This document shows positions 3,405-59,512 of a stretch of 64,000 nt of DNA, in pieces (position 1 is the first letter of the stretch; every line of letters begins with the position of its first letter). Origin of the DNA: Candidatus Magasanikbacteria bacterium RIFCSPHIGHO2_01_FULL_33_34 (lineage in GTDB: Bacteria > Patescibacteriota > Patescibacteriia > Magasanikbacterales > UBA922); contig MFPS01000007.1 of the NCBI GenBank assembly GCA_001782825.1, positions 148,487-212,486 of the forward strand, written 5' to 3'. The notes below the pieces were generated by a model, which was not told the DNA's origin, ran no database searches, and worked only from the letters and a program-made list of their open reading frames with translations. Made by a program: the position numbers and the translations under genes.

Positions 3405-3455
3405 ATTGATTATAATTTTATTTGTAAAAATTAAAAGTGTTATTTACAATTAAGT

Positions 3456-3555
3456 ATTAATTCCAATTATTTATTTTTACTCATTCTCGCCTCGGCTCTG
3501 AGGGTGATGCCTGTTGAGGCATCAAATCCGTAAAAATAAATAATTGGAATTAATA
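3456..3555 (-). repeat. Nested palindromic intergenic element, copy R1 (subfamily A); core 3481-3529 in minus orientation
   Basis: Arms ttaattccaattatttatttttac / gtaaaaataaataattggaattaa enclose the core. Core reverse-complement: GGATTTGATGCCTCAACAGGCATCACCCTCAGAGCCGAGGCGAGAATGA. Outer flanks homologous to R3/R7. Confidence 0.8.
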
Positions 3556-3590
3556 TAATCATAATTTAAAATACATATATAACTTACATT

Positions 3591-4706
3591 TTATTTAATT
3601 AAAACTTTATTTTTGCCAATCTCTATATCAAATTCTTGTCCATCACGATAAACGGCTACATTAAACTTATCAGGCGACAACAAAACTTGTCTGGCCAAAT
3701 CTTCTGTTTTTAATGGTTGATTTTGAATCCTAGTTATTACATCTCCAACACCAATAGTACTAGAAGTAACTTTTGTATTTGATTTATCAACATAAAATCC
3801 AGATACTCGCTTGGTTAGCCCACCATAATTCACATAACCATTAACCATATATCCTGTCCACTCCACCGCTCGATAATCTGGCGCGCCAGATTGTAAAATT
3901 GATGCATATTGACTATCCACTAACCATCCATAAATCACCCTACCATCATTATCCACCATTCCCATCATCTCCCCTTTTTCATTTACCAATATATTACCAA
4001 CTTCAAAATCATCTTTGATTAAATAAAATAATTGTGGTTGCCATATTTTGTATTCCAAATTATTCAAAGCTAAATCTTTTTCAAAATTATATTGTTGATA
4101 TTCTGTCAAAGACACCCCCCATACTATTTCATTGTTACCAATATCATTCCAATTTGCAAAAGAAATAAATGGGAAACCATCACCATCAAACTTTATATAA
4201 GTTAAATTACTTACAGTGTCCACAAATACTTTTTCAATATTGTAAATTGTTCCTTGATAATCAACCCCTTCCCAAAACTTTTCATCCCCTTTGCGATAAT
4301 CTGGCACATAAGCCACTGCCCAACCATCTGAACTAAACATAACTGACTGATATTTGTTGGCAGAATCAGCATAAAATTGTTTGTTTATTTTATCCCGAGT
4401 ATCATATACATACCAAAGCCTCTTTTTAACACTATTTAATACTGATAAATCGACCTCAACTACTTCAGTATTATTTGTTTTTTGTGAACTAACTAAAGTG
4501 GGATCAGGGACAAATGAAGGCGCAAACCAAACCAAAGTAGATAAAGTCAAAGAAACACTAGACAAGCCAGCTACAAAAACCAAAAACAAAAGCCACCAAA
4601 CTGATTTGAAAGTTCTATGTGCCTGTAAATCACAGGCTTTAGCTGGCAAATGTGGTGGACTATTTTCCATAATATATAATATATTTAACAGATTACTATA
4701 CACCAA
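3591..4706 (-). CDS. Membrane-anchored protein with C-terminal PDZ domain (no recognisable Ser-protease catalytic motif)
   Basis: N-terminal TM segment; C-terminal TIGVGDVITRIQNQPLKTEDLARQVLL…VAVYRDGQEFDIEI is PDZ-like; GDSGG motif absent. Confidence 0.5.
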   Translation of the reverse strand: MVYSNLLNILYIMENSPPHLPAKACDLQAHRTFKSVWWLLFLVFVAGLSSVSLTLSTLVWFAPSFVPDPTLVSSQKTNNTEVVEVDLSVLNSVKKRLWYVYDTRDKINKQFYADSANKYQSVMFSSDGWAVAYVPDYRKGDEKFWEGVDYQGTIYNIEKVFVDTVSNLTYIKFDGDGFPFISFANWNDIGNNEIVWGVSLTEYQQYNFEKDLALNNLEYKIWQPQLFYLIKDDFEVGNILVNEKGEMMGMVDNDGRVIYGWLVDSQYASILQSGAPDYRAVEWTGYMVNGYVNYGGLTKRVSGFYVDKSNTKVTSSTIGVGDVITRIQNQPLKTEDLARQVLLSPDKFNVAVYRDGQEFDIEIGKNKVLIK

Positions 4707-6518: not shown

Positions 6519-6926
6519 GGGGATGACAGGCTTCGATAGTCGGAGTCGTTATCTAAATGGGCATATCGAGCTTGCATATCTCGTAAAACTAGGCAAACTT
6601 TTACGTGCAAACGTATTAAGCCGTGCAAAGAACGCACTTGCTCGCGCATTTGCTGTTCCTTCATTGGCTCCTGTTGTTGCTTAAATTCAACAACCATCAC
6701 TCCCCTCATACTCGATAAGGGAATCGTGGTGTAAATCATCGAGCGTAAAAATATGTTCCTTCCGCGTGCATATTTTGACAATATAGCGGATATACCTTTA
6801 GGATAATTTTTGCTGTTTTTAATCTAAAGATTAAATCTCGTTTCGGCGAGACAAAAATCAGCTAATTATGTAGAACATTTATTTAACCCGATATAGACCC
6901 GAGTTCAATTCTCGGCATCTCCACCA
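6519..6926 (+). ncRNA. ssrA: tmRNA (ssrA)
   Basis: 5' GGGGATG pairs with 3' CATCTCC-A-CCA, including the G3·U70 wobble. T-arm cccgag/TTCAATT/ctcgg. Internal tag ORF ends …SLAPVVA-TAA. Canonical position after smpB. Confidence 0.85.
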
Positions 6927-8447: not shown

Positions 8448-8547
8448 ATTAAAATATGATTCATTCTGAACGGATTTGTTTGGCACAACAGCCAAACACC
8501 TCGGAGCCCAAGGCGATAATGAGTGAAGAATGAATCATATTTTAATT
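8448..8547 (+). repeat. Nested palindromic intergenic element, copy R2 (divergent subfamily C); core 8472-8522
   Basis: Arms aattaaaatatgattcattc / gaatgaatcatattttaatt. Core GGATTTGTTTGGCACAACAGCCAAACACCTCGGAGCCCAAGGCGATAATGA. Apical hairpin GTTTGGC/GCCAAAC carries compensatory changes relative to GGTTGCC/GGCAACC of subfamily B. Confidence 0.8.
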
Positions 8548-8580
8548 TGTTGTAACATACATGATATAATTGTAATCACT

Positions 8581-18078: not shown

Positions 18079-18100
18079 ATTTATATAATTTCATGTTAAG

Positions 18101-18262
18101 TTGTAAGAATTGAAAACGTTATTTATAATTAAGCATTATTTCCAATTATTTGTTTTTACGGATTTGAGGCCCCAACAGGCATCACCCTCGGAGCCGAAGC
18201 GAGAATGAGTAAAAATAAATAATTGGAAAAAATGCGGTCATGATTGAAAGTATAAACAATAC
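18101..18262 (+). repeat. Nested palindromic intergenic element, copy R3 (subfamily A) with outer flanks; inner insert 18133-18232, core 18160-18208 in plus orientation
   Basis: Core GGATTTGAGGCCCCAACAGGCATCACCCTCGGAGCCGAAGCGAGAATGA. The outer 35+33-nt flanks recur contiguously, without the 100-nt insert, at 23945-24010. Confidence 0.8.
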
Positions 18263-18362
18263 TACTATATATTACAGTTAAGCTATTTTAACATTTTATA
18301 AATAAAAATAAAAGACCATAAAAGTCTCTTATTTAATTTGTTTTAAATTATATAAACAATAA

Positions 18363-23920: not shown

Positions 23921-23944
23921 ATTTCAAAATTTTAATTTACAATC

Positions 23945-24010
23945 TTAATTGTAAGAATTTAAAACATCATTTATAATTAATGCGATCGTGATTGAAAGTA
24001 TAAACAATGC
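23945..24010. repeat. Apparent empty-site paralogue of the R3 flanks (outer repeat without the inner insert and core)
   Basis: TTGTAAGAATTtAAAACaTcATTTATAATTAA|TGCGaTCgTGATTGAAAGTATAAACAATgCTA, ~90% identical to 18101-18132 plus 18233-18262. Confidence 0.6.
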
Positions 24011-24074
24011 TATTTTATCTTACAAATTAATTAACACTATTCATACACTATTATATAAAATTATTAACAATATT

Positions 24075-24638
24075 TCAAATCTTTCCTGAACCTAAAGGGT
24101 TATATCCATTAGTAATTTCATAACCATCCGAAAAGCCATCCCCATCTGTATCAGATTTAGTCGGGTCAGTTTTATATTCTTCCACTTCTAATTTATCCGA
24201 TATACCATCCCAATCAGTATCAAATTCTGTATTACTTATACCTAATCTTTCTTCTTCAATATCCAAAACACCATCATTATCCAAATCATCATCTTCCAAT
24301 CTCAAAGAGGTAACTCCTATATTTTGTTTTTGTACTTTTTCAATTGGCTTTTTAACTTCCACTTCTACGCTCGTATCCTCTGTCTCACTTATTTTTTTAA
24401 TATCTTTTTTTACAAAAATATTAGTAAAAAAAATTAAATATACTAATATACTTATCAAAATAATGATACCACTAATAATCAAAATCATTTTAAATTTTGA
24501 TTTTCTTTGTGGATAGTCAAGTTCATTGCTATATACATTTTGATCCACTATTTTATTGTCATCTTGATATTCATTCATCTTATATTTAATTAAATTATTA
24601 TAAATATTATGGTTCAATATATGGCGGATCAACCACAT
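24075..24638 (-). CDS. Single-pass membrane protein with TSP3-like Ca-binding repeats ending NGYNPLGSG
   Basis: TM MILIISGIIILISILVYLIFF; DDDLDNDGVLDIEEE…TDWDGISD…SDTDGDGFSDGYEITNGYNPLGSGKI; start overlaps the giant gene's 3' end by 32 nt. Confidence 0.5.
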   Translation of the reverse strand: MWLIRHILNHNIYNNLIKYKMNEYQDDNKIVDQNVYSNELDYPQRKSKFKMILIISGIIILISILVYLIFFTNIFVKKDIKKISETEDTSVEVEVKKPIEKVQKQNIGVTSLRLEDDDLDNDGVLDIEEERLGISNTEFDTDWDGISDKLEVEEYKTDPTKSDTDGDGFSDGYEITNGYNPLGSGKI

Positions 24639-27600
24639 CTATTACACAACGACAGTCTACATTACAAGTTTCAAGCGCATAACAACCAGCATTTGATCCA
24701 TCACATTCTTCACCTGGTGGTTGTATAATTCCATCACCACAATAAGCTGGTGGAAGTATAATCAAAGGCCCACATTCACAATTTGAATAACACTCTTCAA
24801 AGAAACCACAATTTAATGAACTACCATCACATTCCTCATTTGCTTCTCTACTACCATTACCACACACTGCATAGCCATCACAAGTATTAAGACAATTATT
24901 TTGACCTGGAATTGCTGGATCACATATCTCACTTCCATCAATCCTACCATCACCACAAATAGACAATTCACCAATAACTCCACCCGTCTGAATCTGTTCA
25001 GCACTAGTAGCAATTCTATTTAACGGCAATATCTCATAATCACCAGAAGTTGCATCTCTATCTATATTAAACAAATGCCAATATCTCGCTGCAGGATTTG
25101 AACTCTTTAGAGCATCTTCTATAACATAAGTAATATCTGGTCTAAATACAGTCCGGAAAGATTCTGCTCCGGCTGGAGTTTCTCTATATTCATAAACATA
25201 AACTTCCAAATCACTATCATCAAAATATGCCATCGGTACCCCACCGGCCACACTTTGTGCTTCTACAAATACTGCATACGGCCCATAATTCAATAAAGAA
25301 TTTGGCGCAGTATTGAGTGGTATATTTATGGTCATTGATTGTATAAAAGTATCTTCACCCTCATTGATATCATGCATATAAAAACCTTCATTACCAAGCC
25401 CCAATGGCCAAACTGTACAACTTCTGGTTGTATTTGCAAAATTATAGTCAGGAATCCAATAACCACCAACCAGTTCTGTACCGATACAGATCTGTTTTGG
25501 TGTTGCCATATTTCTTTGCATAAACCTATCAGTTCCACCCAAAGTATCATCAGCTGACAAAATACCTAAACCAAAATCTGTACCACCAAATTCTTGTGAT
25601 TCTTCTCTTGTCCATTTAAGCACAACCCTAATTTGTCCTTCTGGTAAAGCAGGAGAAACAATAAAATCATTCACAACAGTATTTAATTCATTATTAACAT
25701 CATAACTATATACAAATTCTGATTCTGGTGATGTTTCTAGACAATTTTCAGTTCCAGCTTGAGGTGTCAAACACATATAATAACTACCATTACAAGCATT
25801 GTCAGCGATAATGCCATTCAATATATCTGTTTCACCCCATGGATAAAATATATTACTAGGTACATACATAACATCAACCAAATCAGGTCCTGCATAAAAT
25901 TGCACTCTATTATTTACAAGAAGTGAACTACCACTATTAGTCAAAAAATATGGTCCATTAGGCTCTGTATAATCTCTAAAATAAAACTTTGCAAACAATC
26001 CATTAGGGTCTGTACCCCATTGCCCACCAGAATAATGCAAACTAATCATCGGATTTAATATTCTCAAACTAGGATCAATGCCACCGCTTGTTAGTCTCTT
26101 ACTTCCACACTGTATACAATTATTATATAAAAATCCACAACTATTTCTACACTCATAATTACCAGTCAAAGTAGTATAAGTCCCATTCTCTAAAGAATAA
26201 TTACCACTTCGTCTGCTACATTGATCTAATTCAAATGTGCCAGAATTTGTCACAATATAAGGATTTGGACAATTTGCACCAACACAATTAGGTCTAACAT
26301 ACTCACAAACCTCAGTTCTAGAACAAAAATTATCAACACAATACCCAGAATTACAATCTGTGTTAGCAGTACAATAACCAAGTGGTTGACAAAAACCTGC
26401 TGGGCTACAATAATTAGAATCACAATCAGCCACTTGAGTAGCAACAGTACACGGATCATTAATATTTCCACTACCACCATAATCTACCAATGAAATAACA
26501 TCAATATTCTCATTACCACAATAAGCATTTGGTTCAATATAAAGTACCTCTCTACAATCCCATGAACAAAAGTTACAGCCTTGGTTGTAACCAGGGACAC
26601 ACTGGACACCATTTATACCATCACCTCTATCACATACTTCACCAGCATCAATATTACTATTACCACAATTACCTAAATCAGGCGTAACATTATCTACAGG
26701 CGCAGAAGCTTCATTTCTACAATTATTTGCACAACCATCTCCGCTAATATTGTTACCATCATCACATTCTTCGGCTGAAGTACATACTCCTGCACTACAA
26801 TTATTTGAAAAACATTGACTATTATTTAAGCAGATTGCACCACTATTACCAGTATGCAAAATTCCATCACCACAACGAGGACCTAATTGTTTACAATTTG
26901 CTGAACAACTATTAGAAGGTAGAGCAAATGTTGGTGGTGTTAAATATGCACCATTGTTAGCTCCTATATCACAATATTCAACTGGTGAACAAACATTCAT
27001 AGCCAAACAATTTCTATTTGTTCCACAACTTGTAACACAAGCATTAGGATTACCGGTACAATTTACATTATTAAATGCGCAATAACTATTTACAACATTA
27101 TCACCACAAAAACTGGCACTAAAAGTACACATAGCCGAACAATTTCCAGGTGTACCATTTAATGCCCCATCATCACATTGTTCTAATCCATCTACCCTAC
27201 CATTACCACACAAAATATCAACATCACAGCCACTATCCTGCCAATTACACGAACTATTACAAACTCTAGCTAAAGTACCCGAAATAGGTACACCATTCAC
27301 ATCTACTGCACAAGCATTTAATGTGTCAACCAATTGGCCAGGAGGATCACACTGTTCAGTACCATTTACAATCCCATTACCACAAGAACCAGACAAAGGT
27401 GATTCTGTACTTCCAGACACACCACACATAGAACCAATCTGAAAATGACTAACATCTATAAATGAACCCAAATCAGACAATCCAAAATATTCTGGACGCC
27501 CATAAATCATATAATCATTTGCTACATCAGGTCTATACTCTAATACTGATGAAACTGCTGGACAAATAAATCTACTATTCACTTCATCCCAACAGGTCTG

Positions 27601-30600
27601 ACTATCTACAGTCACACATACCTCCCCAGCACCAGCACAATCAACATCTGTTGAACAGAGTTGTTCAACTCCATCAACCAGACTACCTGGAACATGACAA
27701 TAATTACAAGTTGTCCAACGATTTATCGGATCAATTCCTACCCCACCACCAATTTCTTGACCCAAATTACCCCAAGATGGCCACAATGAACGAGTTCTAC
27801 CTGGTATATATGTACCAGCACGCAACTGTGGCGCTTCTGAACCAAAATCAACATATCCATTCATGGCTACTTGCGCATTGCGAATAGTAATGAATCTTGA
27901 CCAATCTCTTCTCATCTTTGTCTGATCTGCAGAACACATACCAGTTCCACCACCCAAAGGATTACCCAATAAATCCCTACAATCAAAATCAGTACTACAA
28001 GAAATATCTACCGCATTTTCACAAAACAAATCATTTGAAATATTAGAATTAAATTCCAATGAATTAATCAATTGTTCAAAAACATCATAAGTATTTTGTT
28101 GTGCATTTTCATTTATACTAAATACAAATATATTATTGTATAGCTCACCTAATCCAGGTCTATTAGCTGCCGATATATAATAATTACTACCATTAGTCAT
28201 AGCTTCATAACCATCAACTGAAATTTGATTGAATCCAGTTGGTTCACCAATTTTTCTCCTAAACCATTGAGTTAATGTTTCCTTTTCTAAAATAGTTGGT
28301 GCACTGTCTGTTAGAAAAACTTGCAAACCAATCACATCATCATTTACAGAATTGAAGAATAAAAAGCGTTTCAAATTTTCAGCATCTGGTAAACCAGAAG
28401 CTATATTAAATACAAATGGTCTTAAGTATGGCAAATCGTCTACTACATTACCAACCAAACCACTGTCGGCACAATAACTCATTTCAAAATTAAAGAAATC
28501 TCCATTTACATTACTCGTTCCAAGCATAGTTGAACCATCAAATATTCCAGCAGTCGTACCATCATTATTTCCAACTTCATCTTCAAATGGGAAATAATCT
28601 CTTGGTGGCCAAGGGTTTTCACAAAAAAATGAAACTAATTCGGCTGTGCCTGTAAAGGTTTGTCCAACTTGACTATCTACCAAATCTGTATCCACCAAAA
28701 CAGTTGCATGCGCACCAGCAGTTCTAGAACCCTCAAGTTCTGTAGAAGCTATAATTCTATTTGGGATATTTCCTGTAGTTATTATATCTGGATCAATTGT
28801 AAATAAAGTATCAGCTGATGGAGTCCAAAACCATTCCCAATCATATACACCCGGAATAGGACTAATCAATTGTCCACTGGTTGATTCAACAACAGCTGTA
28901 AAATTATAATCAGTATTTGGTGTATCATAAAAATAACCAGCAGGAATAACATTAATACTATTAATCTTACAAACATCATCTCCAGTTCTGAACATAAAAC
29001 TATCGTCTATTTCTCCAGTTCTAGCCACAACATTATTTAATGGACTTCTAATACCTACACCACGAACATCTTTTATACCATTATTACCCCCTTTTAATAG
29101 CACTGTATAATAAGCATTTTGTTCAAGTAAATTATTGAGATAAAAATCAACTCTACTCTCTATTACATTGCCATCAACATCAGTGGTTTTATTTACCAAT
29201 GGTAAACCACTAAATAAATTCTGTCTGCACCAAGAACCAACAGTAGCGACATTTGTAATAGAAGCTTTAGCCTGACCACCAGTAGCCCAAGTAAAAAAGC
29301 GTTTTATTGTGTTCCAAATATTTATAAAAATAGAATCACTTTTTTTATTATTATTTTCATATGCCAAAGTCCCATCAATATCAGAAGTAATATCTACACA
29401 ATCAACTGGTGGGGCTACCTCATAACCTCTTGCTATCCAAACATTATTCAACAAAGTTGTTTCATTGATATTACCATCAAAAGTCACTGATACTAATGAA
29501 TTCAAACAAACCACATTTGGATCCAATATACCAGCACCATCATAAGGATATTCATCTACTCGTTCTGGTCTATCATAACAACAAGAATTTGATCCTACAC
29601 CCAAAGTATTATTAACATTACCGCGACAATCATTATGATTATTAGCCAAATCTGGTTGTTCATACTCAGTAAAACCACAAGCCAAAGCATAATCTGCCTC
29701 ATCAGATAATTGAGTTTGTTGCGCAGGAATTAAATCTGCTAATTCACCACGAACTCGCACAATATTTGACTCTATCAATGTACTCATCAATTGTGTTCCA
29801 GGATCCAGCAATAACCTAGTGCCAACTGATCTTACAGATTGAACAGGATTTTGACCTGGTATGGCAAAACCAGCCATTTCTGCAACGGTATATTCACACC
29901 AACCATACTCTCCATCACCAACAACACCATCTCCACAAAGTGATGGAATAGTATATCTATCAATTGAAGACCCGTGTAAAGTACAATCTGGTTTACAACC
30001 TTCTTGTGTATTAGGATCACAATAAAATGGAGCTGGAATAACTGAATCACAAATATTTTGTAATAAACAATTTGAAGAACAAAGATTATCAAAATCAGCT
30101 ACAAATATTCCTGGAATTACAGTCCCATTATCACTAGCTGGGACTCCAAAATCTCCATCAAATAAATGAAATTGTCCACCAATTATTTCACACTCTTCTC
30201 CAAATTCTAATTCTCCATTTCCACATTGGCTAACCGCTTGTCTACATTCATCAGTATCCTGCCAAGCTGATCTATCATCACACCATTCTTGTACCAAACC
30301 AGTTCCAATATGTAAACAATTACTAGTACAAGTCCTACCAAGCACCTCTCCATTCAATCCTGGTTCACAATCCTCACCAACTGTAACTTCTGAACCATCA
30401 CAAATAGGTTGACCAGTTGAAGCTTCCTCAATATCTCTAGTTGAACCAATATGTAAACAAGTATTAGAACATCCAACTCGTGTTGATGATGTTAATCCTG
30501 GATCACATTCTTCACCCAAATTTGTTTCTAAAATACTATTTCCACAAGTTGCATTAGTGTTTCCCGGTCGCAAACAATTGATAGAACAAGAGTCACCAGC

Positions 30601-42459: not shown

Positions 42460-42951
42460 ATGAATGATTCTGTCTACAAACGCCCAACTTGGGATGAATA
42501 TTTTATGGAAGTAACACGAGCCGTGGCCAAAAGAGCTACTTGCGACCGAGGACGATCTGGATGCGTCATCTCCCGCGACAAACAAATTATGGTAACTGGA
42601 TATGTCGGTTCACCAAAAGGCTTGCCTCATTGTGATGAAATTGGGCATCAGATGAAATCAACTACCCACGAAGATGGTCATATTTCCCAACATTGTGTCC
42701 GTACCGCCCATGCAGAACAAAATGCTATAGTCCAAGCCGCCAAACTCGGTATCAGCATAAATGATGGCACACTGTATTGCAAAATGACCCCATGCGCTAT
42801 CTGCGCCAAAATGATCATAAACGCCGGAATTAAACGAATTGTTTGTGAAAAAAGATATCATGCCGGCAGTGAAAGTGAAGAAATGTTCAAACAAGTCGGA
42901 ATTTTTTTAGAATTTTTTGATGAAAATATAGAACAATATGACAAACAATAA
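42460..42951 (+). CDS. dCMP deaminase (cytidine/deoxycytidylate deaminase family)
   Basis: HAEQNAI and PCAICAKMI zinc-binding motifs. Confidence 0.85.
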   Translation: MNDSVYKRPTWDEYFMEVTRAVAKRATCDRGRSGCVISRDKQIMVTGYVGSPKGLPHCDEIGHQMKSTTHEDGHISQHCVRTAHAEQNAIVQAAKLGISINDGTLYCKMTPCAICAKMIINAGIKRIVCEKRYHAGSESEEMFKQVGIFLEFFDENIEQYDKQ

Positions 42952-43507
42952 ACCTGAAAAAAACATTCTTGGTTTTGTAGGCCTGCTTGCTAGTGGCAAA
43001 GGTACTGCTGCCAAATATTTGGAAGAAAAATATTATGCTGATACTTTTAGGTTTTCTACTATGTTACGAGACTTGTGCAATAGAATATATATTGAACAAT
43101 CACGCGACAACTTGATAAAAATGTCTGAAATTATTCGGGGTACATTTGGTGAAGATACTATGGCAAAAGTAATGGCAGAAGACGCAAAAAATGCAAAATC
43201 TAACATTACTATAGTTGAAGGAATCCGTCGCATGGCTGATATTGAACACTTATCAAAATTACCAAATTTTATATTAATTGAAATTTTTGCAAACCCTAAA
43301 ACTCGTTATGAGCGCTTAATCAAACGCGGAGAAAACTCAGATGATAATAATAAAACTTATGAAGAATTTCTAGAAGATCACAAACGATCAACTGAAATGA
43401 GTATCCCAGAAGTCGCTAAGAACGCCACTGAAAAAATTGACAACAATGGCAGTATAGAAGATTTACACCAACAACTAGATAATCTAGTAAAAAAATATGC
43501 AAGTTAA
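42938..43507 (+). CDS. P-loop nucleoside/(d)NMP kinase family protein
   Basis: Walker A GLLASGKGT; small kinase fold size; embedded between the dCMP deaminase and dut genes. Confidence 0.55.
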   Translation: MTNNKPEKNILGFVGLLASGKGTAAKYLEEKYYADTFRFSTMLRDLCNRIYIEQSRDNLIKMSEIIRGTFGEDTMAKVMAEDAKNAKSNITIVEGIRRMADIEHLSKLPNFILIEIFANPKTRYERLIKRGENSDDNNKTYEEFLEDHKRSTEMSIPEVAKNATEKIDNNGSIEDLHQQLDNLVKKYAS

Positions 43508-43925
43508 AATCAAGCGCATAGACAAATCACTCCCCTTGCCCACATACCAAACTAATGGAGCCGTTGCTTTTGATTTATATACTCGTATTGACGAAATAAT
43601 TCTCGCGGGTGAAACCAAAATGTTGCCAACAAACTTGATAATACAAACTCCAAATGGATATATGCTAATGATAGCCTCTCGCTCTAGCCTAGCCCAAAAA
43701 AAAGGTTTGAAAATGGCCAATGGTGTTGGTATAATAGACCAAGACTATTGTGGAGAAGATGATGAAATAAAATTATTAGTGCACAACTACACTAACAATG
43801 ATGTAGCTGTTAAAAAAGGCGAAAGACTTGGCCAAGGTGTATTTGTAAAAATAGAAAAAAGCGAATGGGAAGAAATTGAAAAAATAAATAATGAAAATCG
43901 CGGTGGATTTGGATCAACAGATTAA
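43497..43925 (+). CDS. dut: dUTP diphosphatase
   Basis: dUTPase motifs incl. C-terminal RGGFGSTD. Confidence 0.9.
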   Translation: MQVKIKRIDKSLPLPTYQTNGAVAFDLYTRIDEIILAGETKMLPTNLIIQTPNGYMLMIASRSSLAQKKGLKMANGVGIIDQDYCGEDDEIKLLVHNYTNNDVAVKKGERLGQGVFVKIEKSEWEEIEKINNENRGGFGSTD

Positions 43926-43936
43926 ATATTAATATT

Positions 43937-44746
43937 ATGGAAAAAGAAAAATTTCAACCAAACCCAATTCAAAATCTACTAATGAAAGTTATGAGTGAAA
44001 TGAGAAATAATCCTGGTTTATTTCAAGAAATGAAACAAGCAAAAAGAAGTGAAAAATTTTATTCAGAACCACTAGAGCAAAAAGATGAAACAAAAAGAAG
44101 TAAAGATACAGTAGGATTAACCCATGCAATAAATACACACAACATAACAAAAGAACTGACTGATATAGACTTAAAAAATAATAAGTTAGACGAAACACAA
44201 AGTTTTAGATTACGAATTACTGCTCTTATACATGACATGGGTGAACTTAGTCCAAAAGGTGATATTGATTACAATGAAAAATCAAGTACAGATACAAAAG
44301 AAGAAATAGAATACTTTGAAAAAAATATACAAAATCTATTTCCAAACCTATTAAAAACAGAAATTGAAAATATTTTGGAAATATATAAAGAAAATATTCA
44401 TTACAAAGATAAAGGAGAAAATACACAAGAAGCTAAATACTTTAATATGGTTGAATTTGTAGGAGCTCTAATGCACGCTCTGGAAGAATTTGATGAAAAA
44501 AGAGACAATATGAAATGGAGACGATTCTGTGATGATTATCTATATAATATAGCAGAAAAAATAGAAAATATAATAAATAATTATCCTGCAGCAAAACAAT
44601 ATCTATCCAATCACAAAAATAAATTACAAAAAATGATAAATTGGGCAGAAAAAGAAATAAAAGAAAATCCAAAACACAAAGAAATGGAAAAATTGACAGA
44701 TGAAAAAATAATTACTTGGAAAAATATTTTAAAAAAAATATCTTAA
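43937..44746 (+). CDS. HD-domain phosphohydrolase (possible 5'-deoxynucleotidase)
   Basis: H…HD motif (LTHAINTHNI … ALIHDMGE). Confidence 0.5.
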   Translation: MEKEKFQPNPIQNLLMKVMSEMRNNPGLFQEMKQAKRSEKFYSEPLEQKDETKRSKDTVGLTHAINTHNITKELTDIDLKNNKLDETQSFRLRITALIHDMGELSPKGDIDYNEKSSTDTKEEIEYFEKNIQNLFPNLLKTEIENILEIYKENIHYKDKGENTQEAKYFNMVEFVGALMHALEEFDEKRDNMKWRRFCDDYLYNIAEKIENIINNYPAAKQYLSNHKNKLQKMINWAEKEIKENPKHKEMEKLTDEKIITWKNILKKIS

Positions 44747-44857
44747 TTTATACAAAAAAATGTATATTTATAAAAAATTAAAAATAAGTTAATAATATAA
44801 ATAATTAAAATTAATAAATTAACAAAAATTTTATTTAATTAATCTAAGCAAAAAAAT

Positions 44858-45103
44858 ATGAAACGGCCACATATAGAAGGAAAACTTCCTGGTGTAAATG
44901 AAGGTGGAAACCCACCACCAATTAAACCAGGCGAAACTATAGAAGACGCAGCCAAAAGACTTGGAATCAAAACAAAGACTGACTTAGAACAAGAAGAATG
45001 GGAAAAAGTAGAGCATGAAGCACGTAGACAATTAGCTAATGGTACAGATACAGAAATCCATTTAATAGATATAGAGGATATAGAAGATACACCTAGAGAA
45101 TAA
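44858..45103 (+). CDS. Hypothetical 81-aa acidic protein
   Basis: ORF track only. Confidence 0.3.
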   Translation: MKRPHIEGKLPGVNEGGNPPPIKPGETIEDAAKRLGIKTKTDLEQEEWEKVEHEARRQLANGTDTEIHLIDIEDIEDTPRE

Positions 45104-45132
45104 CAAGTATAAATAACTAAGTCTAATACAAT

Positions 45133-46005
45133 ATGCAAGCATATCTAGATATTGTAAAAAAAGTATTAAATGAAGGCATAAAAAAAGATGATAGAACTGG
45201 AACAGGTACGCTCGCAATTGCAGGGGCGATGTTTGAGCATGATATGTCCAAAGGTTTCCCATTGATTACTACCAAAAAAATGCCTTACAAAGTAATCGCT
45301 TCTGAACTTGAATTTTTTATAAAAGGATTGACTGACAAAAAATGGCTACAAGAAAACAAAAATCATATTTGGGATGAATGGGCCAACCCCAAAAAAGCTC
45401 CTTATGGCCATGATATAGAATCAAAAAATAAAATGGCAGAAGAACGAGATTTAGGACCAATCTATGGTTTCCAATGGCGCCACTTCAATGCACCATATTA
45501 CAATTATGATACTGACTATCGCAACCAAGGAGTGGATCAATTACAAAAAGTAATAAATACTCTCAAAGAAAATCCTACTGACAGAAGAATGATAGTTTGT
45601 GCATGGAATCCTACTATGATGGACCAAATGGCTTTGCCACCATGTCATTATTCTTTTCAAGTTACCGTCCTTGACGGAAAAATTAATTTACTTTGGAATC
45701 AAAGATCAGTTGATGTAATGTTAGGACTCCCCTTCAATATTGCTAGCTATGCAACCATGCTTCATCTACTTGCCAAAGAAACCAAGCTTGGTGAAGGAAA
45801 ATTGGTTGGATTTTTGGCAGATGTCCATATATATTCCAATCATATTGAAGGCGCACATGAACAAATTACTCGTGACCCAAACAAATTTCCACTTCCTAAA
45901 CTTGTAACCGAAAATTTTACTAATATTTTTGATTGGCAATGTCAGAATAGTAAAATAGTTGGATATGAAAGCTACCCAAAAATATCATTTGATATAGCAA
46001 TTTAA
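45133..46005 (+). CDS. thyA: Thymidylate synthase (ThyA)
   Basis: Canonical ThyA sequence incl. active-site PPCH (…ALPPCHYSFQ…). Confidence 0.95.
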   Translation: MQAYLDIVKKVLNEGIKKDDRTGTGTLAIAGAMFEHDMSKGFPLITTKKMPYKVIASELEFFIKGLTDKKWLQENKNHIWDEWANPKKAPYGHDIESKNKMAEERDLGPIYGFQWRHFNAPYYNYDTDYRNQGVDQLQKVINTLKENPTDRRMIVCAWNPTMMDQMALPPCHYSFQVTVLDGKINLLWNQRSVDVMLGLPFNIASYATMLHLLAKETKLGEGKLVGFLADVHIYSNHIEGAHEQITRDPNKFPLPKLVTENFTNIFDWQCQNSKIVGYESYPKISFDIAI

Positions 46006-46031
46006 GCATTTCAAATTAAAAACTAACCAAT

Positions 46032-46538
46032 ATGCCCTTCTCTCTTATAAGTGCGATTGCAAAAAATAACTGCATTGGCAAAAACAATAAACTTCCTTGG
46101 AATATCCCCGAAGATTTAGAGCATTTCAAACAATTAACTCTCGGCAAAAATTGTATTATGGGCCAAGCAACCTTTGAATCAATCTTGGGTTATCTTGGCA
46201 AACCACTACCAGGCAGGCAAACAGTCGTATTAACTTTAAACAAAGACTATACTGTACCTAAGGGCGTAAAGATATTTCATTCAATTGAAGATGCTTGGGA
46301 AACTCTCAAAGATGAAGATAATTTTGTCTGTGGTGGAGCAACAATTTACAAATTAACCATAGACAAAGTTGATACTCTATATATTACTCATGTTCATATG
46401 GAAGTTGATGGTGATGCATTTTTTCCAGAAATTGATAAAAATATTTGGCAAGAAGTAGAAAGAGAAGATCATGAAAAATTTTCATTTGTAACCTATAAAA
46501 AAGTTCATAGTTCAGAGCCAATAGCCAATAATTCATAA
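46032..46538 (+). CDS. folA: Dihydrofolate reductase
   Basis: ISAIAKNNCIGKNNKLPWNIPEDLEHFKQLT… DHFR signature. Confidence 0.9.
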   Translation: MPFSLISAIAKNNCIGKNNKLPWNIPEDLEHFKQLTLGKNCIMGQATFESILGYLGKPLPGRQTVVLTLNKDYTVPKGVKIFHSIEDAWETLKDEDNFVCGGATIYKLTIDKVDTLYITHVHMEVDGDAFFPEIDKNIWQEVEREDHEKFSFVTYKKVHSSEPIANNS

Positions 46539-46903
46539 TCAATCAGATTATTAATACATACAGAGAACTCATCGTATGGCAAAAATCAATAGAATTAGTA
46601 ATAGAAATTTATAAATTAACAAACTTATTCCCTACAGAAGAAAAATTTGGTTTAATTTCACAAATGAAAAGATGTTCAATTTCAATACCATCAAATATAG
46701 CAGAGGGATATGCAAGAAAAAATAAAAAAGAAAATGCTCATTTTATAAATATATCATTTGGTTCTGCAACAGAACTTGAAACACAAATTATTATTTCTAA
46801 AAAATTAAATTTTATTAACAACAATCAATGGGAAAAAGTAGATCAACTTTTGCTTGAAGTTTTACGGATGTTATATAAATACCGACAAGCACTTTATACT
46901 TAA
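46535..46903 (+). CDS. Four-helix-bundle protein (23S rRNA intervening-sequence protein family); no canonical ATG at the conserved N-terminus
   Basis: In-frame …YRELIVWQKSIELVIEIYKLTNLFPTEEKFGLISQMKRCSISIPSNIAEGYARK… matches the family; only ATA/ATC/ATT codons between the upstream TAA (46529) and the conserved VWQK. Confidence 0.55.
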   Translation: MINQIINTYRELIVWQKSIELVIEIYKLTNLFPTEEKFGLISQMKRCSISIPSNIAEGYARKNKKENAHFINISFGSATELETQIIISKKLNFINNNQWEKVDQLLLEVLRMLYKYRQALYT

Positions 46904-46928
46904 TTCTATTGGCTATGAACTACCAACT

Positions 46929-47615
46929 ATGAACTACAAAAAAGGATTATTCATAATGCTTGAAGGAACAGATGGTTCTGGAAAAACCACTCAAACCCAA
47001 TTATTACTTGATCATATAAAAAAAGAAGGTAAAAAAGTAAAAGAAATAAGCTTCCCCCAATATGGCACACCTAGTGCCTCAATGGTAGAAAAATATTTGA
47101 ATGGCGAATTTGGTACAGCTGAAGAAGTCGGGCCATACCGTGCTTCTATTTTTTATGCAATTGATAGATATGCCCATAGTCAACAAATAAAAAAATGGTT
47201 GGAAGAAGGTTATATTGTAATCGCCAATAGATATGTCGGATCAAATATGGGACATCAAGGTGGCAAAATAAAAAATGAAATAGAAAGAAAAAAATACTTT
47301 GAATGGAATTATAATCTTGAATACAATATATTTGGGATATCCAAGCCTGATATAAATATTATACTGCATGTTACACCAGAAATCTCACAACAACTTGTCG
47401 ACAAAAAAGAGACAAGAGACTATATAAAAACTGACAAAAAAAGAGATATACACGAAGATGACCTCAACCATCTTAGAGATGCTGAACTGGCATATTTACA
47501 AATAGCCAAATCCTTTCCAGAATTTCACCTAGTAGAATGCGTTGAAAAAAATGAAATATTACCATCTGAAACTATTCACAAAAAAATATGGGGATACATA
47601 CAAAAATTTATATAA
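46929..47615 (+). CDS. tmk: Thymidylate kinase
   Basis: MLEGTDGSGKTTQ P-loop, DRY motif; start placed at MNYKK. Confidence 0.85.
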   Translation: MNYKKGLFIMLEGTDGSGKTTQTQLLLDHIKKEGKKVKEISFPQYGTPSASMVEKYLNGEFGTAEEVGPYRASIFYAIDRYAHSQQIKKWLEEGYIVIANRYVGSNMGHQGGKIKNEIERKKYFEWNYNLEYNIFGISKPDINIILHVTPEISQQLVDKKETRDYIKTDKKRDIHEDDLNHLRDAELAYLQIAKSFPEFHLVECVEKNEILPSETIHKKIWGYIQKFI

Positions 47616-47653
47616 ACATGCTATAATGAAAATATATTTATTAATTTACTCAT

Positions 47654-48436
47654 ATGCTTATCTCAGCCCAGGATTTGGTCAAAAAAAGCGCCAATCTATA
47701 TAAAGACAATTTTAACTTATTTTTCAAACTTGCTTTCTTGGTTACAATACCTTCAATCATCACAACATCATTGGTAGGAGCCTTAACAGCAATATTTGGT
47801 CGACAATCCCAAGAATTTTTTGTAACTGTCATTTATGGATTATTTTTTATAATACTTTTTATAATTTCATATGTTATTGGCATTTGGTTCTCAATCGTCA
47901 AAGTAAGAATTATTGCCGCAAGATATGAAAATAAAGACATTGCATCAATCAGCAGTTATATTCATTCCGACAAAAAATTAATTTTACCAGTCATCGCAGC
48001 CTCCATACTAGCTGGAATTGCCATAATTGGTGGTTTTATATTATTTATTGTTCCTGGTATAATTTTTTCTGTATGGTTTGCTTTTGTAATGTACGCTGTA
48101 GCCATAGACAATAAAGAATCAGTAGACTCTCTCAGTTACAGTAAAAGTCTATCCAAAGGAAGATGGCTTGCTGTTTTATGGAGAATATTAGTCCCTATAT
48201 CATTTTTCTTAGTTGGAACCTATTTAATGCAAACTCCTCTTTCAATAGTTTTAAATACATTTGATTCTGTAATTATAATAACACTTGTTGCTATTGCATC
48301 ATTCCTAATAAATATATTATTTACCCCATTTCTAGTAGCTTCACAAGTAATTTTATATTCCAATCTTAAAAATACCATGGCTACAGAAAATTCTATTTCC
48401 GTACCAAACACCACAACTGACGAGCCTCCTTTTTAA
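47654..48436 (+). CDS. Polytopic membrane protein, unknown function
   Basis: ORF track; ~6 TM helices. Confidence 0.5.
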   Translation: MLISAQDLVKKSANLYKDNFNLFFKLAFLVTIPSIITTSLVGALTAIFGRQSQEFFVTVIYGLFFIILFIISYVIGIWFSIVKVRIIAARYENKDIASISSYIHSDKKLILPVIAASILAGIAIIGGFILFIVPGIIFSVWFAFVMYAVAIDNKESVDSLSYSKSLSKGRWLAVLWRILVPISFFLVGTYLMQTPLSIVLNTFDSVIIITLVAIASFLINILFTPFLVASQVILYSNLKNTMATENSISVPNTTTDEPPF

Positions 48437-48560
48437 TTGAATAGGCCCTATAATTTCTTTGAAAACCCTTTAATACAGGGCTTTTCATTTTTTAGCTTAA
48501 ATGATAACATATAGATAAATGCATAAAATAAATTAATTATAAAATATTTAACAAACAGAA

Positions 48561-48680
48561 TAATTAATAATTAGAGATTATTATGAGCGGATTTGGTTGC
48601 CACAACAGGCAACCACCTCGGAGCCATAGCGAGAATCCTGCCGGCAGGCAGGGAGCGAATGATAATCTCTAATTATTAAT
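48561..48680 (+). repeat. Nested palindromic intergenic element, copy R4 (subfamily B) carrying an extra CCTGCCGGCAGGCAGG palindrome
   Basis: aattaataattagagattattat-GAGCGGATTTGGTTGCCACAACAGGCAACCACCTCGGAGCCATAGCGAGAAT[CCTGCCGGCAGGCAGG]GAGCGAATGA-taatctctaattattaatt. Confidence 0.85.
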
Positions 48681-48733
48681 TTCTATTTCAGATTATAAAT
48701 TAATTAATACTCCTCATAAATGAATAATAATCT

Positions 48734-50290: not shown

Positions 50291-50306
50291 AAACATTTTT
50301 AATTAA

Positions 50307-50411
50307 ATAATTAATGATTAAAGATTATTATGAGCGGATTTGGTTGCCACAACAGGCAACCACCTCGGAGTCAAAGCGAGAATGAGAGAATAATAATCTT
50401 TAATCATTAAT
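50307..50411 (+). repeat. Nested palindromic intergenic element, copy R5 (subfamily B)
   Basis: aattaatgattaaagattattat-GAGCGGATTTGGTTGCCACAACAGGCAACCACCTCGGAGTCAAAGCGAGAATGA-gagaataataatctttaatcattaatt; shares 25 nt of right-hand extension with R4. Confidence 0.85.
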
Positions 50412-50573
50412 TTCTATTTCAGATTATAAATTAATCCACAGCTATACAGTTGCATCAATTACAATATACTGATAAACTGAATCAAACTATGAAAAAATTA
50501 AAATTACAGACAATTGATTATAAACAATATTAGAGACTTACCATCCCGAAAGGGGTGGTATTTTTTTGAAAAT

Positions 50574-54850: not shown

Positions 54851-54861
54851 ATCATCATACT

Positions 54862-55785: not shown

Positions 55786-55791
55786 AAAAAT

Positions 55792-56265
55792 ATGACCATA
55801 CAAAATAAAAAATTATTAGTATCAGCCATCAAAGATGGCACTGTAATTGATCGGATTGAATCAGGAAATGCTCTTAAAGTTATACATTTTCTTAATATAA
55901 TAGATAGTGAAAAAATTATTACCGTTGGACTAAATCTTCCAAGCAAAGTTATGGGAAAAAAAGATTTAGTAAAAATAGAAAATCTAGAATTAACAACAAA
56001 ACAAATAAATGATCTTGCAATTTTGGCTCCTAATGCTACTATTAATATAATAAAAAAATATAAAGTAATAAAAAAATTTAAAGCTGAAATTCCAGATTAT
56101 ATTCACAATATAGTTACCTGTCCTAACCCAAAGTGTATAACAAACAATGAAAATATTATTACCAAATTTGATATCATAAACAAAAAAAATCCCATAAAAA
56201 TAAAATGTAATTATTGTGAAAAAATTTTTGAACAAAATGATATACTAAATTATAAACACACTTAA
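55792..56265 (+). CDS. pyrI: Aspartate carbamoyltransferase regulatory subunit
   Basis: N-terminal allosteric domain + C-terminal 4-Cys zinc domain (CPNPKC…CNYCEK). Confidence 0.85.
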   Translation: MTIQNKKLLVSAIKDGTVIDRIESGNALKVIHFLNIIDSEKIITVGLNLPSKVMGKKDLVKIENLELTTKQINDLAILAPNATINIIKKYKVIKKFKAEIPDYIHNIVTCPNPKCITNNENIITKFDIINKKNPIKIKCNYCEKIFEQNDILNYKHT

Positions 56266-56266
56266 T

Positions 56267-57460
56267 GTGAAAATAAAAACTTTTGATAACCAAACTATTG
56301 ACTTACCAATAGAAGAAAACATATCTCAAAAAAATATTATTGCTTTACCAGGACTCATTGATCCTCATGTACATTTTCGTATACCTGGGGGAGAACACAA
56401 AGAAACTTGGGAAACTGGCGCCCAAGCTGCCATCGCTGGTGGTGTCTGTACAGTCCTTGATATGCCAAATAACAACCCTTCAATAACCGATGAAAAAACT
56501 TTTTTAGAAAAAAAAGAAATAATAAAAAAACAATTAAAAAATACAGACATAAATCTAAACTATTTTTTATACTTAGGAGCAACTGAAAATAATATAAATG
56601 AAATAAAAAAACTAAAAAATGAAATAGTGGCAGTAAAAATGTTTATGGGATCAAGCACTGGCAATCTTTTGGTGGCAGATCTTGAAAAACAAAAAGAGAT
56701 TTTTAAAATATGCGGTGAATTAAATATACCCCTAGCAGTCCATGCTGAAAATGAAGCCATGATTATTGAAAATACACAGAAGCTATCAGACTCAATCAAT
56801 AATATTACTACTCATTCCAAGATTCGCTCACGAGAAGTAGCCGAGTCTGCTGTAAAACAAGCAATTAAACTCGCAGAAATTTATAAAACTAAATTATATA
56901 TACTCCACTGTAGCACAAAAGAAGAAATGGACTTAATAAGACTTGCCAAACAAAAAAATATTGATGTCTCAGCTGAAGCTTGCCCACACCACCTATTTTT
57001 AAATGATACAGCGTATGAAAAATTTGGCAGTAAAGTACAAATGAATCCACCTATACGTACTAGCACAGACAATGAAGCATTGTGGACCGCCCTTATTGAT
57101 GGCACTATTGATACCATTGGAAGTGACCACGCTCCTCATTTATTATCTGAAAAAGCAAATCCTTATCCTAATTCCCCTTCTGGAATACCCGGTATAGAAA
57201 CCACTCTGCCACTTTTATTAAATGCTTATAATCAAGACAAAATAAAACTGGAAAAAATTGTTGAACTGACAAACACAAATGCCAAAAAAATATTTAACCT
57301 AAAAATAACTGACAGTTGGGTAATAGTTGATTTGGATTTAGAAAAAGAAATAAAAAATGAAAATTTAAAAACTAAATGTGGCTGGTCCCCTTTTGCTGGA
57401 CAACTCATCAAAGGCTGGCCAATCTATACAGTATTAAACAATAAAATATATAAATTATAG
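56267..57460 (+). CDS. pyrC: Dihydroorotase
   Basis: LPGLIDPHVHFR metal-binding motif, amidohydrolase fold. Confidence 0.85.
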   Translation: MKIKTFDNQTIDLPIEENISQKNIIALPGLIDPHVHFRIPGGEHKETWETGAQAAIAGGVCTVLDMPNNNPSITDEKTFLEKKEIIKKQLKNTDINLNYFLYLGATENNINEIKKLKNEIVAVKMFMGSSTGNLLVADLEKQKEIFKICGELNIPLAVHAENEAMIIENTQKLSDSINNITTHSKIRSREVAESAVKQAIKLAEIYKTKLYILHCSTKEEMDLIRLAKQKNIDVSAEACPHHLFLNDTAYEKFGSKVQMNPPIRTSTDNEALWTALIDGTIDTIGSDHAPHLLSEKANPYPNSPSGIPGIETTLPLLLNAYNQDKIKLEKIVELTNTNAKKIFNLKITDSWVIVDLDLEKEIKNENLKTKCGWSPFAGQLIKGWPIYTVLNNKIYKL

Positions 57461-57507
57461 TAAAAATATAATAGTATTGTTTACACTTTTACAACGACCG
57501 CATTATT

Positions 57508-57625
57508 TTCAATTATTTATTTTTACTCCCTGCCTGCCGGCAGGCAGGATTCTCGCTTTGGCTCCGAGGGTGATGCCTGTTGAGGCCTCAAATCCGTAAA
57601 AATAAATAAACAAATTAATGCTTAA
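57508..57625 (-). repeat. Nested palindromic intergenic element, copy R7 (subfamily A, core in minus orientation) with the extra CCTGCC(TGCC)GGCAGGCAGG palindrome
   Basis: rc core GGATTTGAGGCCTCAACAGGCATCACCCTCGGAGCCAAAGCGAGAAT[CCTGCCTGCCGGCAGGCAGG]GA; arms aattatttatttttac / gtaaaaataaataa; outer flanks homologous to R3. Confidence 0.8.
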
Positions 57626-57673
57626 TTATAAATAACACTTTTAATTGTTATACCTTGCATAAAATAATATATT

Positions 57674-58735: not shown

Positions 58736-58788
58736 TAAATAATTTAAATCAATTATAAAATACTTAAATTATTTATTTTTAACAATAC

Positions 58789-58891
58789 AATTAATAATTA
58801 GAGATTATTATGAGCGGATTTGGTTGTCACAACAGGCAACCACCTCGGAGCCACAGCGAGAATGAGCGAATGATAATCTCTAATTATTAAT
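58789..58891 (+). repeat. Nested palindromic intergenic element, copy R6 (subfamily B)
   Basis: Identical arms to R4; core GAGCGGATTTGGTTGTCACAACAGGCAACCACCTCGGAGCCACAGCGAGAATGA (apical stem C-to-T gives a G·U wobble). Confidence 0.85.
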
Positions 58892-58905
58892 TTAACAAAT
58901 TTATT

Positions 58906-59511: not shown

Positions 59512-59512
59512 T

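Follow-up and report, generated by a model that had tools for sequence, protein, structure and literature searches.

The question raised by this locus is whether a hairpin-forming segment of 100 nt, present between two flanks at one site and absent from between the same two flanks at another, is itself a mobile unit or part of a larger one. The window, meaning the whole stretch of DNA that was analyzed, comprises 64,000 nt of contig MFPS01000007.1 (positions 148,487 to 212,486, forward strand) of Candidatus Magasanikbacteria bacterium RIFCSPHIGHO2_01_FULL_33_34, a bacterium of the candidate phyla radiation (CPR) with 33% G+C. The segment, one of seven copies in the window (R1 to R7), is R3 at 18133-18232, and its flanks recur joined together near 24 kb. 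A first interpretation made from the letters alone (the sequence-only reading) had taken this pair for a filled and an empty site, the segment being inserted into another, independent intergenic repeat. The explanation that we favor, with some reservation, is that the segment is the central hairpin of a noncoding element of ~175 bp, similar to a miniature inverted-repeat transposable element (MITE) or foldback element, and that the copy at 23950-24024 secondarily lost its hairpin. The features of these two sites are as follows.

18095..18101, no strand: left target-duplication copy of R3 (GTTAAGT), 6/7 against 18277-18283
18102..18132, + strand: left arm of R3 (TGTAAGAATTGAAAACGTTATTTATAATTAA), the "outer left" of the sequence-only reading; a second Magasanikbacteria lineage has TGTAAGAATTACAAGCGTTGTTTATA
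18133..18232, + strand: central hairpin module of R3, outer stem P1 around a junction core; covariance model score, 104.5 bits
18159..18209, + strand: conserved core of R3, consisting of CGGATTTG, hairpin P2 with loop CCAACA, and CACCCTCGGAGCCGAAGCGAGAATGAG
18233..18276, + strand: right arm of R3 (TGCGGTCATGATTGAAAGTATAAACAATACTACTATATATTACA), the "outer right" of the sequence-only reading
18277..18283, no strand: right target-duplication copy of R3 (GTTAAGC)
23950..24024, + strand: arms-only copy, 75 nt; left arm 23950-23980, right arm 23981-24024, join ...ATAATTAA to TGCG...
23943..23949 and 24025..24031: degenerate duplication of the arms-only copy (TCTTAAT and AATTAAT), 5/7

The relationship between the two sites was established by direct reading and by blastn-short within the window. 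Positions 23949-23980 matched 18101-18132 (29/32, 90.6%, E 5e-6), and positions 23979-24008 matched 18231-18260 (28/30, 93.3%, E 3e-7). Since these two matches overlap at the arms-only site by just 2 nt (AA), the 100 nt of 18133-18232 are missing from it exactly. Ungapped extension of the similarity gave 31/36 identities on the left and 39/48 on the right. The claim that the flanks of R3 lie contiguous elsewhere at about 90% identity, with the join ATAATTAA to TGCG, was thus confirmed, and the matching stretch was set at 23950-24024. The 100-nt unit also proved to be a discrete module, as had been proposed, sharply delimited at its stem base and precisely absent from one copy of the flanks. 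Its imperfect terminal inverted repeats were a different matter. The palindromic ends GCATTATTTCCAATT and AATTGGAAAAAA do exist, but they are not conserved ends: their complementarity continues into TGC of the right flank, and they form the base of a 19- to 26-bp stem whose sequence is wholly different between subfamilies.

The proposal that the flanks are another, independent intergenic repeat and that the family is therefore nested was not supported, as both flanks were found to be the terminal arms of one element of ~175 nt. This was deduced from loci outside the window (designated with L numbers). A pattern from the 3' half of the core retrieved eight metagenome loci (L109-L116) from the Joint Genome Institute (JGI), all of which were confirmed by the covariance model with 52 to 86 bits. 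Seven of the eight, at ~45% G+C, are from other Magasanikbacteria according to the best named matches of DnaK. These loci have almost the same core and a wholly different stem (GCCAATGGTTGTCC...). They are bordered by TGTAAGAATTACAAGCGTTGTTTATA at one end and AAAATATAAATAACGCTTAATTCTAAC at the other, and these flanks are homologous to the outer left and outer right sequences of the window. Left and right arms are, moreover, imperfect inverted repeats of each other (for the right arm, in its outer part). Because the flanks of the second lineage are homologous and mutually inverted, the supposed other repeat is concluded to be the two arms of a single element, and the architecture of arms, hairpin, and core is common to two Magasanikbacteria lineages.

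The whole element is noncoding and 155 to 175 nt long. It consists of a 31-nt left arm, a long stem, a junction core of ~50 nt, and a 44-nt right arm ending in ATTACA. The termini, defined alike for every copy, are TGTAAG...CTTACA or variants thereof, with TGTAAGAAT.. on the left and ..ATTCTTACA or ..ATATTACA on the right in R1, R3, R8 (an eighth copy, past the end of the window), and the arms-only copy, and with TGTAAGAAT.. and ..TTCTAACG in the second lineage. The left arm is shared by R1, R3, R6, R8, and the arms-only copy. The sequence-only reading had placed the outer sequence around R1 and R7 as well. This was correct for R1 (3.4 kb), but the copy at 58.8 kb lacks it, and the sixth copy (57.5 kb) is flanked by it instead; it also borders the eighth copy at L103:526-624, ~9 kb past the window end. 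No conserved open reading frame was found in the element, and the sole AUG of the core is destroyed by an extra hairpin in R4 and R6.

Immediately outside these termini, 7-bp direct repeats were observed. They are perfect (7/7) for R1 (TTTTATT), R8 (AATAATT), and two copies on the metagenome contig L113 (ACTTACT for L113b and AATTATT for L113a), and they are imperfect for R3 (GTTAAGT and GTTAAGC, 6/7) and for the arms-only copy (5/7). Across the window, 7/7 matches of this kind have a null frequency of 0.0003, and matches of 6/7 or better one of 0.004. The earlier statement that there is no target-site duplication therefore remains valid for the inner unit alone, where only AA/TAA microhomology of 2 to 3 nt is seen, but not for the outer sequence. 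The duplicated sequences (TTTTATT, AATAATT, ACTTACT, AATTATT, and GTTAAG(T/C)) do not correspond to the TTAA or TA duplications of piggyBac-like or IS630/mariner-like elements.

The comparison of orthologous spacers for presence and absence that the sequence-only reading had suggested revealed polymorphism, in this case for the whole element and at three spacers. The hsp20-dnaK spacer is filled in L113 and L117 (141-nt insert plus repeat) and is empty, at 17 bp, in L110 and L118, with flanks that are 99.6% identical and DnaK that is 98 to 100% identical between the two states; it is also empty in the sister genome L119. The ftsZ-nrdR spacer is filled (284 bp) in the window genome only and measures 100 to 210 bp, without arms or hairpin, in five syntenic relatives (L096, L097, L098, L099, and L101; NrdR identity, 74 to 87%). 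Conversely, the pyk-ppdK spacer is empty in the window and in L096 and is filled in the sister L097, whose contig ends inside the filled copy (...TAATTGGAAGTAA joined to TGCGATCGTGG...TCTTACAA), with the right arm joined to the end of the inner unit. The arms-only copy is itself an insertion relative to the sisters, in which the orthologous spacer is 50 bp (L096) or 26 bp (L098). Downstream of rplT, where the window has R2, the sister L096 has a terminator hairpin only. The whole element thus inserts into AT-rich intergenic DNA with a 7-bp duplication, and its presence varies between strains and between sister species. An orthologous site differing by the inner unit alone was not found. The suggestion that the 100-nt unit is mobile or excisable by itself consequently stands only in part: it is missing from one copy, is flipped in R1 and in L115, and has a history unlike that of the flanks, but every insertion polymorphism demonstrated is one of the whole element. 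The remaining copies are listed below.

3423..3588: R1 element; arms on the + strand (3423-3453 and 3556-3588), central module 3454-3555 on the - strand, core inverted relative to the arms
3416..3422 and 3589..3595: duplication of R1 (TTTTATT), perfect
8452..8548, + strand: R2, downstream of rplT; same core, different stem, flanked by TTAA...TTAA, without A-type arms
48560..48676, + strand: R4 (B subfamily); same core, different stem, extra mini-hairpin at 48637-48652, flanks shared with R5 and R7
50307..50407, + strand: R5 (B subfamily), between gatB and carA
57460..57654, - strand: R6 element; central module 57503-57621, extra GC-rich mini-hairpin at 57529-57548
57622..57654 and 57460..57502, - strand: arms of R6, termini degenerate
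58787..58887, + strand: R7 (B subfamily), between pyrD and pyrE
L103:526-624, ~9 kb past the window end: R8, A-type, between the same left and right flanks

With a degenerate core pattern, 7 copies of the unit were found in the window against 0 expected, and these scored 82 to 109 bits with the covariance model built from them. The R3 module has a fold energy of -32.3 kcal/mol (z = -5.3). The core of ~50 nt is nearly invariant among the window copies and loci L109-L116 of other metagenomes and has the same order in all copies: CGGATTTG, a 5- to 7-bp hairpin with loop NCAACA, (C)ACCTCGGAGCC-NN-AGCGAGAAT, an optional mini-hairpin, and GAG. In summary form this is CGGAUUUG, a CAAC-loop hairpin, and then CCUCGGAGCC..AGCGAGAAUGAG. 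The core is enclosed by an A/T-rich stem of 19 to 26 bp whose sequence is unrelated between subfamilies (A, comprising R1, R3, and R6; B, comprising R4, R5, and R7; and R2 alone) and yet always complementary. Among 14 distinct copies, including those from relatives, 96.5% of the stem cells were paired, compared with 67% in shuffles and ~40% with the partners slid, and 18 of 19 pairs of P1 had changed on both sides. At least one covarying pair was found in P2; P3 (CUCG/CGAG) is invariant and so uninformative for covariation. Compensatory changes together with conserved unpaired nucleotides are what a structured functional RNA displays, although a DNA palindrome templated from arm to arm would give the same counts. 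The listed strand has 10 G-U pairs against 3 A-C mismatches, which is suggestive only, and folding energies have no consistent strand preference.

The optional GC-rich mini-hairpin, CCTGCC(TGCC)GGCAGGCAGG, occurs in R4 (B-type) and R6 (A-type) and in no other window copy. In both, the 16 to 20 nt (48637-48652 and 57529-57548) enter the core at exactly the same point, between GAGAAT and GAG, and constitute a second level of presence and absence inside the element.

The core is found in both orientations relative to the arms, being inverted in R1 and in L115/L109. The B copies share 23 to 30 nt of flank outside the hairpin (the 30 nt to the right of R5 are identical to those to the right of R4) and hence have arms of their own. 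Since B copies, R2, and L114 share the core with unrelated stems and flanks, the core rather than the arms is the constant part of the wider family. What is unusual in the element is this invariant, structured center in a freely covarying stem, with the center in both orientations. Neither Rfam nor full-text literature searches (for CPR MITEs, structured RNAs in Patescibacteria, and sequence words) yielded a match or a description of it. In Rfam 15 no family matched the unit at its gathering threshold, in the window scan or in scans of small regions with lax filters, and only generic hairpin noise was returned for it at E up to 10; the self-cleaving ribozyme families likewise did not match the unit.

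Several candidate identities for the structure were considered and discarded. An origin of the core from transfer-messenger RNA (tmRNA) or tRNA was rejected by inspection, as the likeness amounts to one GGAUUUG-like word. A kink-turn or k-junction formed by AAUGA and GGA was examined by hand; its register is unlike that of the canonical kink-turn, and the optional hairpin interrupts it. Arms and center do not form one continuous long hairpin either: the fold of the arms-only copy is not more stable than that of shuffled sequences (z ~ -1), and the minimum-energy fold of the 211-nt region leaves the arms unpaired with each other.

A divergent core (52 bits) was observed at L114:205-334 (JGI Ga0210377_10012428). 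Its P2 is much longer, and its outer inverted repeats, of 20 bp, are of another sequence (TTAACCCACATTATTCATAA). This locus was found by the very 24-mer that it matches, and its homology rests on the surrounding stem, GCGGGTTTT, and TTTGCC..GGCAAA. The contig, at 51% G+C, has genes for cytochrome c oxidase subunit I and SCO1, and the core motif may accordingly reach beyond CPR bacteria. Other searches were negative. Genome contigs were scanned with a loose core pattern, and the 80 loci among the matches listed were all due to chance, the covariance model finding none in them. Viral contigs, phage records, and plasmid records had no match to core, arms, or whole element. The first core pattern gave no match in the metagenomes, a zero that is weak evidence because the collection is incomplete: a JGI contig of this very genome (L107) exists and yet gave no match.

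How the difference between R3 and 23950-24024 arose was deduced mainly from the arms. In a neighbor-joining tree of the arms, ((R3,EMPTY),R8),R6,..., the arms-only copy (EMPTY) is nearest to the arms of R3 (distance 0.117), and R6, R1, and the second lineage fall outside. Because the arms-only copy nests among filled copies, loss of the hairpin is more parsimonious than nested insertion, and the filled/empty pair could not be upheld as an insertion into an empty site in the form stated. The alternative is that the 100-nt hairpin is independently mobile and inserts at TTAA/TAA in either direction, the 75-nt arms being a separate, older MITE with a central TTAA as preferred target and 23950-24024 a true empty site. 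In its favor, the empty junction has exactly one TTAA, and in filled copies the left side reads TTAA and the right side NTAA (ATAA in R6, CTAA in R8, and GTAA in L097). R2, R4, R5, and R7 are bordered by TTAA...TTAA right at the stem base, but this arrangement is indistinguishable from four further stem pairs and, TTAA being palindromic, is unreadable as a duplication. The two orientations of the core relative to the arms (R1 and L115), its occurrence with unrelated flanks (B subfamily, R2, and L114), and the younger appearance of the R1 inner unit compared with the R1 arms would also fit independent mobility. Against this, every one of the five A-type inner units found (R1, R3, R6, R8, and L097) occupies the same arm junction, with no such unit found in another setting, two lineages have the composite architecture in common, the flank shared by B copies implies that these too have arms, and no orthologous site was found to differ by only the inner unit. 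A single instance of the arms-only form was encountered in the 255 kb of Magasanikbacteria DNA examined, versus about a dozen filled copies. Taken together with the position of the arms-only copy in the tree, these data make nested insertion rather unlikely in our judgment.

A quite different proposal is that the copies are a family of small structured-RNA genes or cis-regulatory RNAs, with the left arm as promoter (TTGTAA, 17 nt, TATAAT) and the hairpin as the RNA, spread by duplication and kept by the host, with the arms-only copy a dead gene. The invariant core, covarying stems, and optional extra stem are the usual signature of functional RNA, and the excess of G-U pairs over A-C mismatches on the listed strand, the retention of the hexamers and their 17-nt spacing in both lineages, and the antisense placement of the arms relative to flanking genes (10/10 assessable copies) agree with it. 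The target duplications and the strain-level presence and absence, however, show transposition rather than gene duplication. The spacer between the hexamers is conserved along with the hexamers, flipped copies would be transcribed antisense, folding energies favor neither strand consistently, and Rfam has no match. Promoter-like matches occur at the chance rate in this AT-rich DNA (41 found versus 42.3 expected), and the left arm as promoter was therefore dropped as evidence. We regard this proposal as improbable as a replacement for hairpin loss from a MITE-like element, with which it is compatible as an added layer. The possibility that no element exists, and that AT-rich promoter and terminator regions converged or were copied by ordinary recombination with a chance deletion between them, draws on the fact that short AT-rich matches and promoter-like hexamers are common in a genome of 33% G+C. 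It is hardly tenable in view of the number of core matches over expectation, the covariance model scores of 75 to 109 bits, the perfect 7-bp duplications, the clean empty sites in relatives, and the same element in other metagenomes.

Several observations weigh against hairpin loss from a single MITE-like element as well. The arm tree, on which the direction of the difference rests, spans only 75 aligned positions, and no strain was found with a filled site at 23981, all five of the five assemblies of this strain sharing the 154-bp spacer. The distance between R1 and R3 is 0.106 for the inner unit versus 0.325 for the arms, a pattern easier to reconcile with re-insertion of the hairpin or gene conversion than with simple co-inheritance. 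In the B subfamily, R2, and L114, the same core is combined with unrelated stems and flanks. One arm of L113a is truncated although its duplication is perfect, a difficulty for an enzyme requiring both ends. Finally, no transposase was found among the window open reading frames or beside any copy, and neither the window nor 255 kb of related DNA yielded an autonomous element with these ends, the scans of the collections being incomplete.

With these reservations, the following course of events is proposed for the MITE-like element. Most likely, the AA/TAA repeat at the stem base allowed slippage or excision that removed the hairpin of 23950-24024 precisely, as suggested by the arm phylogeny together with the junction microhomology, which lies at the base of the 26-bp stem; microhomology so placed is classically associated with slippage past a hairpin. 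The hairpin module behaves as a separable cassette that can be lost, can lie flipped relative to the arms, and has a sequence history of its own, the flipping presumably occurring by recombination or template switching between the stem arms. Stems group as (R1,R3)(R6,R8) and cores as (R1,R8)(R3,R6), and this disagreement points to exchange between copies. Arms and hairpin have different histories, so that the hairpin may have moved independently. The core is probably under selection for both sequence and structure. Since the length of the duplication is constant and the termini are TG..CA, the element is likely to be mobilized in trans by a DDE-type transposase encoded elsewhere. A more far-reaching hypothesis, which we put forward as doubtful but worth stating, is that the core could be a functional nucleic acid motif not described before. 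This motif, structured as RNA or as single-stranded DNA, might for instance form a junction that binds protein or is catalytic. It would be needed by the element to propagate itself or have been recruited by the host, and would act as a cassette able to leave a transposon, to invert, and to insert again at one fixed junction within it. Such a cassette would explain why the core is the sole constant across subfamilies, in both orientations, and why one copy lacks exactly this part.

In size (below ~300 bp), noncoding nature, terminal inverted repeats, constant 7-bp duplication, and insertion polymorphism at orthologous sites, the element is a bacterial MITE in kind, like the Correia, ERIC, or Rickettsia palindromic elements (RPE). 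Correia elements (CREE/NEMIS) of Neisseria are noncoding, ~100 to 160 bp long, with terminal inverted repeats, a long hairpin, and many intergenic copies that are often cotranscribed. A common shorter variant lacks an internal segment of ~50 bp, the duplication is TA, and the ends are the conserved part. The resemblance is one of size, noncoding nature, inverted termini, target duplication, and shorter variant. The Magasanikbacteria element differs in that its duplication is 7 bp and not TA, its central core is most conserved, its stem is free to change, and its center lies in either orientation. ERIC/IRU and RPE are imperfect palindromes of 100 to 150 bp in transcribed intergenic DNA that have size variants by internal segments at fixed positions and no linked transposase. 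The present element is set apart from them by description (core with covarying stems, TG..CA termini, and 7-bp duplication), and none was matched via Rfam.

An analogy can also be drawn with foldback-type elements and parvovirus-style flip/flop hairpins, since the whole unit is one long imperfect palindrome with an asymmetric center in two orientations. Nothing here points to hairpin-primed replication, however, and recombination or template switching between stem arms is equally able to flip the center. Elements derived from IS200/IS605, and REP/BIME, likewise form hairpins, conserve structure more than sequence, are noncoding, and occur in multiple copies. Such elements leave no target duplication and require Y1 (HUH) transposases or RAYTs; those of the IS200/IS605 type insert 3' of a fixed tetra- or pentanucleotide and have subterminal hairpins at both ends. 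The IS200/IS605-type mechanism considered in the sequence-only reading is contradicted by the target duplications, and no transposase was found in the window. The 7-bp duplications are of variable sequence, and the element has one hairpin, in its center, and not one near each end, so that it does not belong to this group. Nor does it belong with integron attC sites (short palindromes with R/L boxes that follow gene cassettes) or REP/BIME (palindromes of 20 to 40 nt with a RAYT gene), as the copies lie between housekeeping genes in both orientations, with no cassette array, integrase, or RAYT in the window; the center is the conserved part here and the variable part in attC. IS66- and IS481-type insertion sequences have termini GTAAG.. 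or TGT.. and duplications of 8 bp or 4 to 15 bp. They may be the parents, given the likeness in the TGTAAG...CTTACA termini and the fixed duplication, but no such transposase or full-length element was found.

The genes next to the copies include nrdR/ftsZ, the region downstream of rplT, gatB/carA/pyrC/pyrD/pyrE, and the region upstream of a DUF5663 gene. In 10 of 10 assessable copies, the arms run antisense to co-directional flanking genes, and the orientation of the core is mixed. These copies are 3423-3588, 18102-18276, 23950-24024, and 57460-57654 in the window and L103:483-656, L097:3998-4059, L113:2890-3030 and 3475-3629, L111:3825-3983, and L112:2291-2452 outside it. The consistent orientation could reflect selection, with the hairpin and A/U tail serving as a terminator or with an outward -35-like TTACAA beside the downstream gene, or it could instead reflect orientation-specific insertion.

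Four of the seven window copies lie in a nucleotide metabolism island at 42460-60283 (dCMP deaminase, dUTPase, thyA, folA, tmk, gatB-like, carAB, pyrBI, pyrC, pyrD, pyrE, and pyrF). The nearest nonidentical homologues of PyrD share only 66% identity with it and belong to other CPR phyla (Gottesmanbacteria and Daviesbacteria), not to Magasanikbacteria, which hints at horizontal acquisition. At ~42.4 kb the gene orientation changes from minus to plus and the GC skew from ~ -0.3 to ~0; this divergence point may be a replication origin or may simply follow from the composition of the coding strand. At 6519-6926, next to smpB, a tmRNA gene (118 bits) was found by Rfam and not by ARAGORN. Positions 24607-35106 encode a surface protein of 3,499 amino acids (T4SS-pilin-like N terminus, Big_5) with internal repeats of 50 to 75 nt, followed by two TSP3-repeat proteins; its orthologue has 4,531 to 5,257 amino acids in relatives.

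Other repeats were also recorded. Short tandem repeats (AAGTCAT.. and GACTTTA..) surround the ftsZ-nrdR spacer at L097:1384-1559, and a different hairpin of 115 nt occupies the TSP3-TSP3 spacer at L101:3978-4094; both are unrelated to the element. Two 66-nt direct repeats, 98.5% identical and 78 nt apart from start to start, are found at L103:6027-6170 (~3.5 kb past the window end) between an acetyltransferase gene and a gene for an MJ0043_C domain. A contig of the same strain (L095; ENA ERZ28563660 scaffold_3211) diverges abruptly inside ftsA, equivalent to window position 20220 onward, and this is probably a chimeric join or a rearrangement.

As this locus illustrates, a filled and an empty site within one genome do not give the direction of the event, for which sister genomes and a tree of the flanks are needed. 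CPR bacteria have tiny genomes in which mobile DNA is little documented. The element load observed, 8 copies in ~74 kb, is high for such a genome, and the family provides clean strain-level evidence for recent transposition in Magasanikbacteria. The conservation is the reverse of that in neutral MITE copies, the center being invariant and the stems freely covarying, and this points to a functional structured motif absent from Rfam. Long hairpins consistently oriented between essential genes (ftsZ/nrdR, dnaK/hsp20, and the pyr operon) may shape transcription there.

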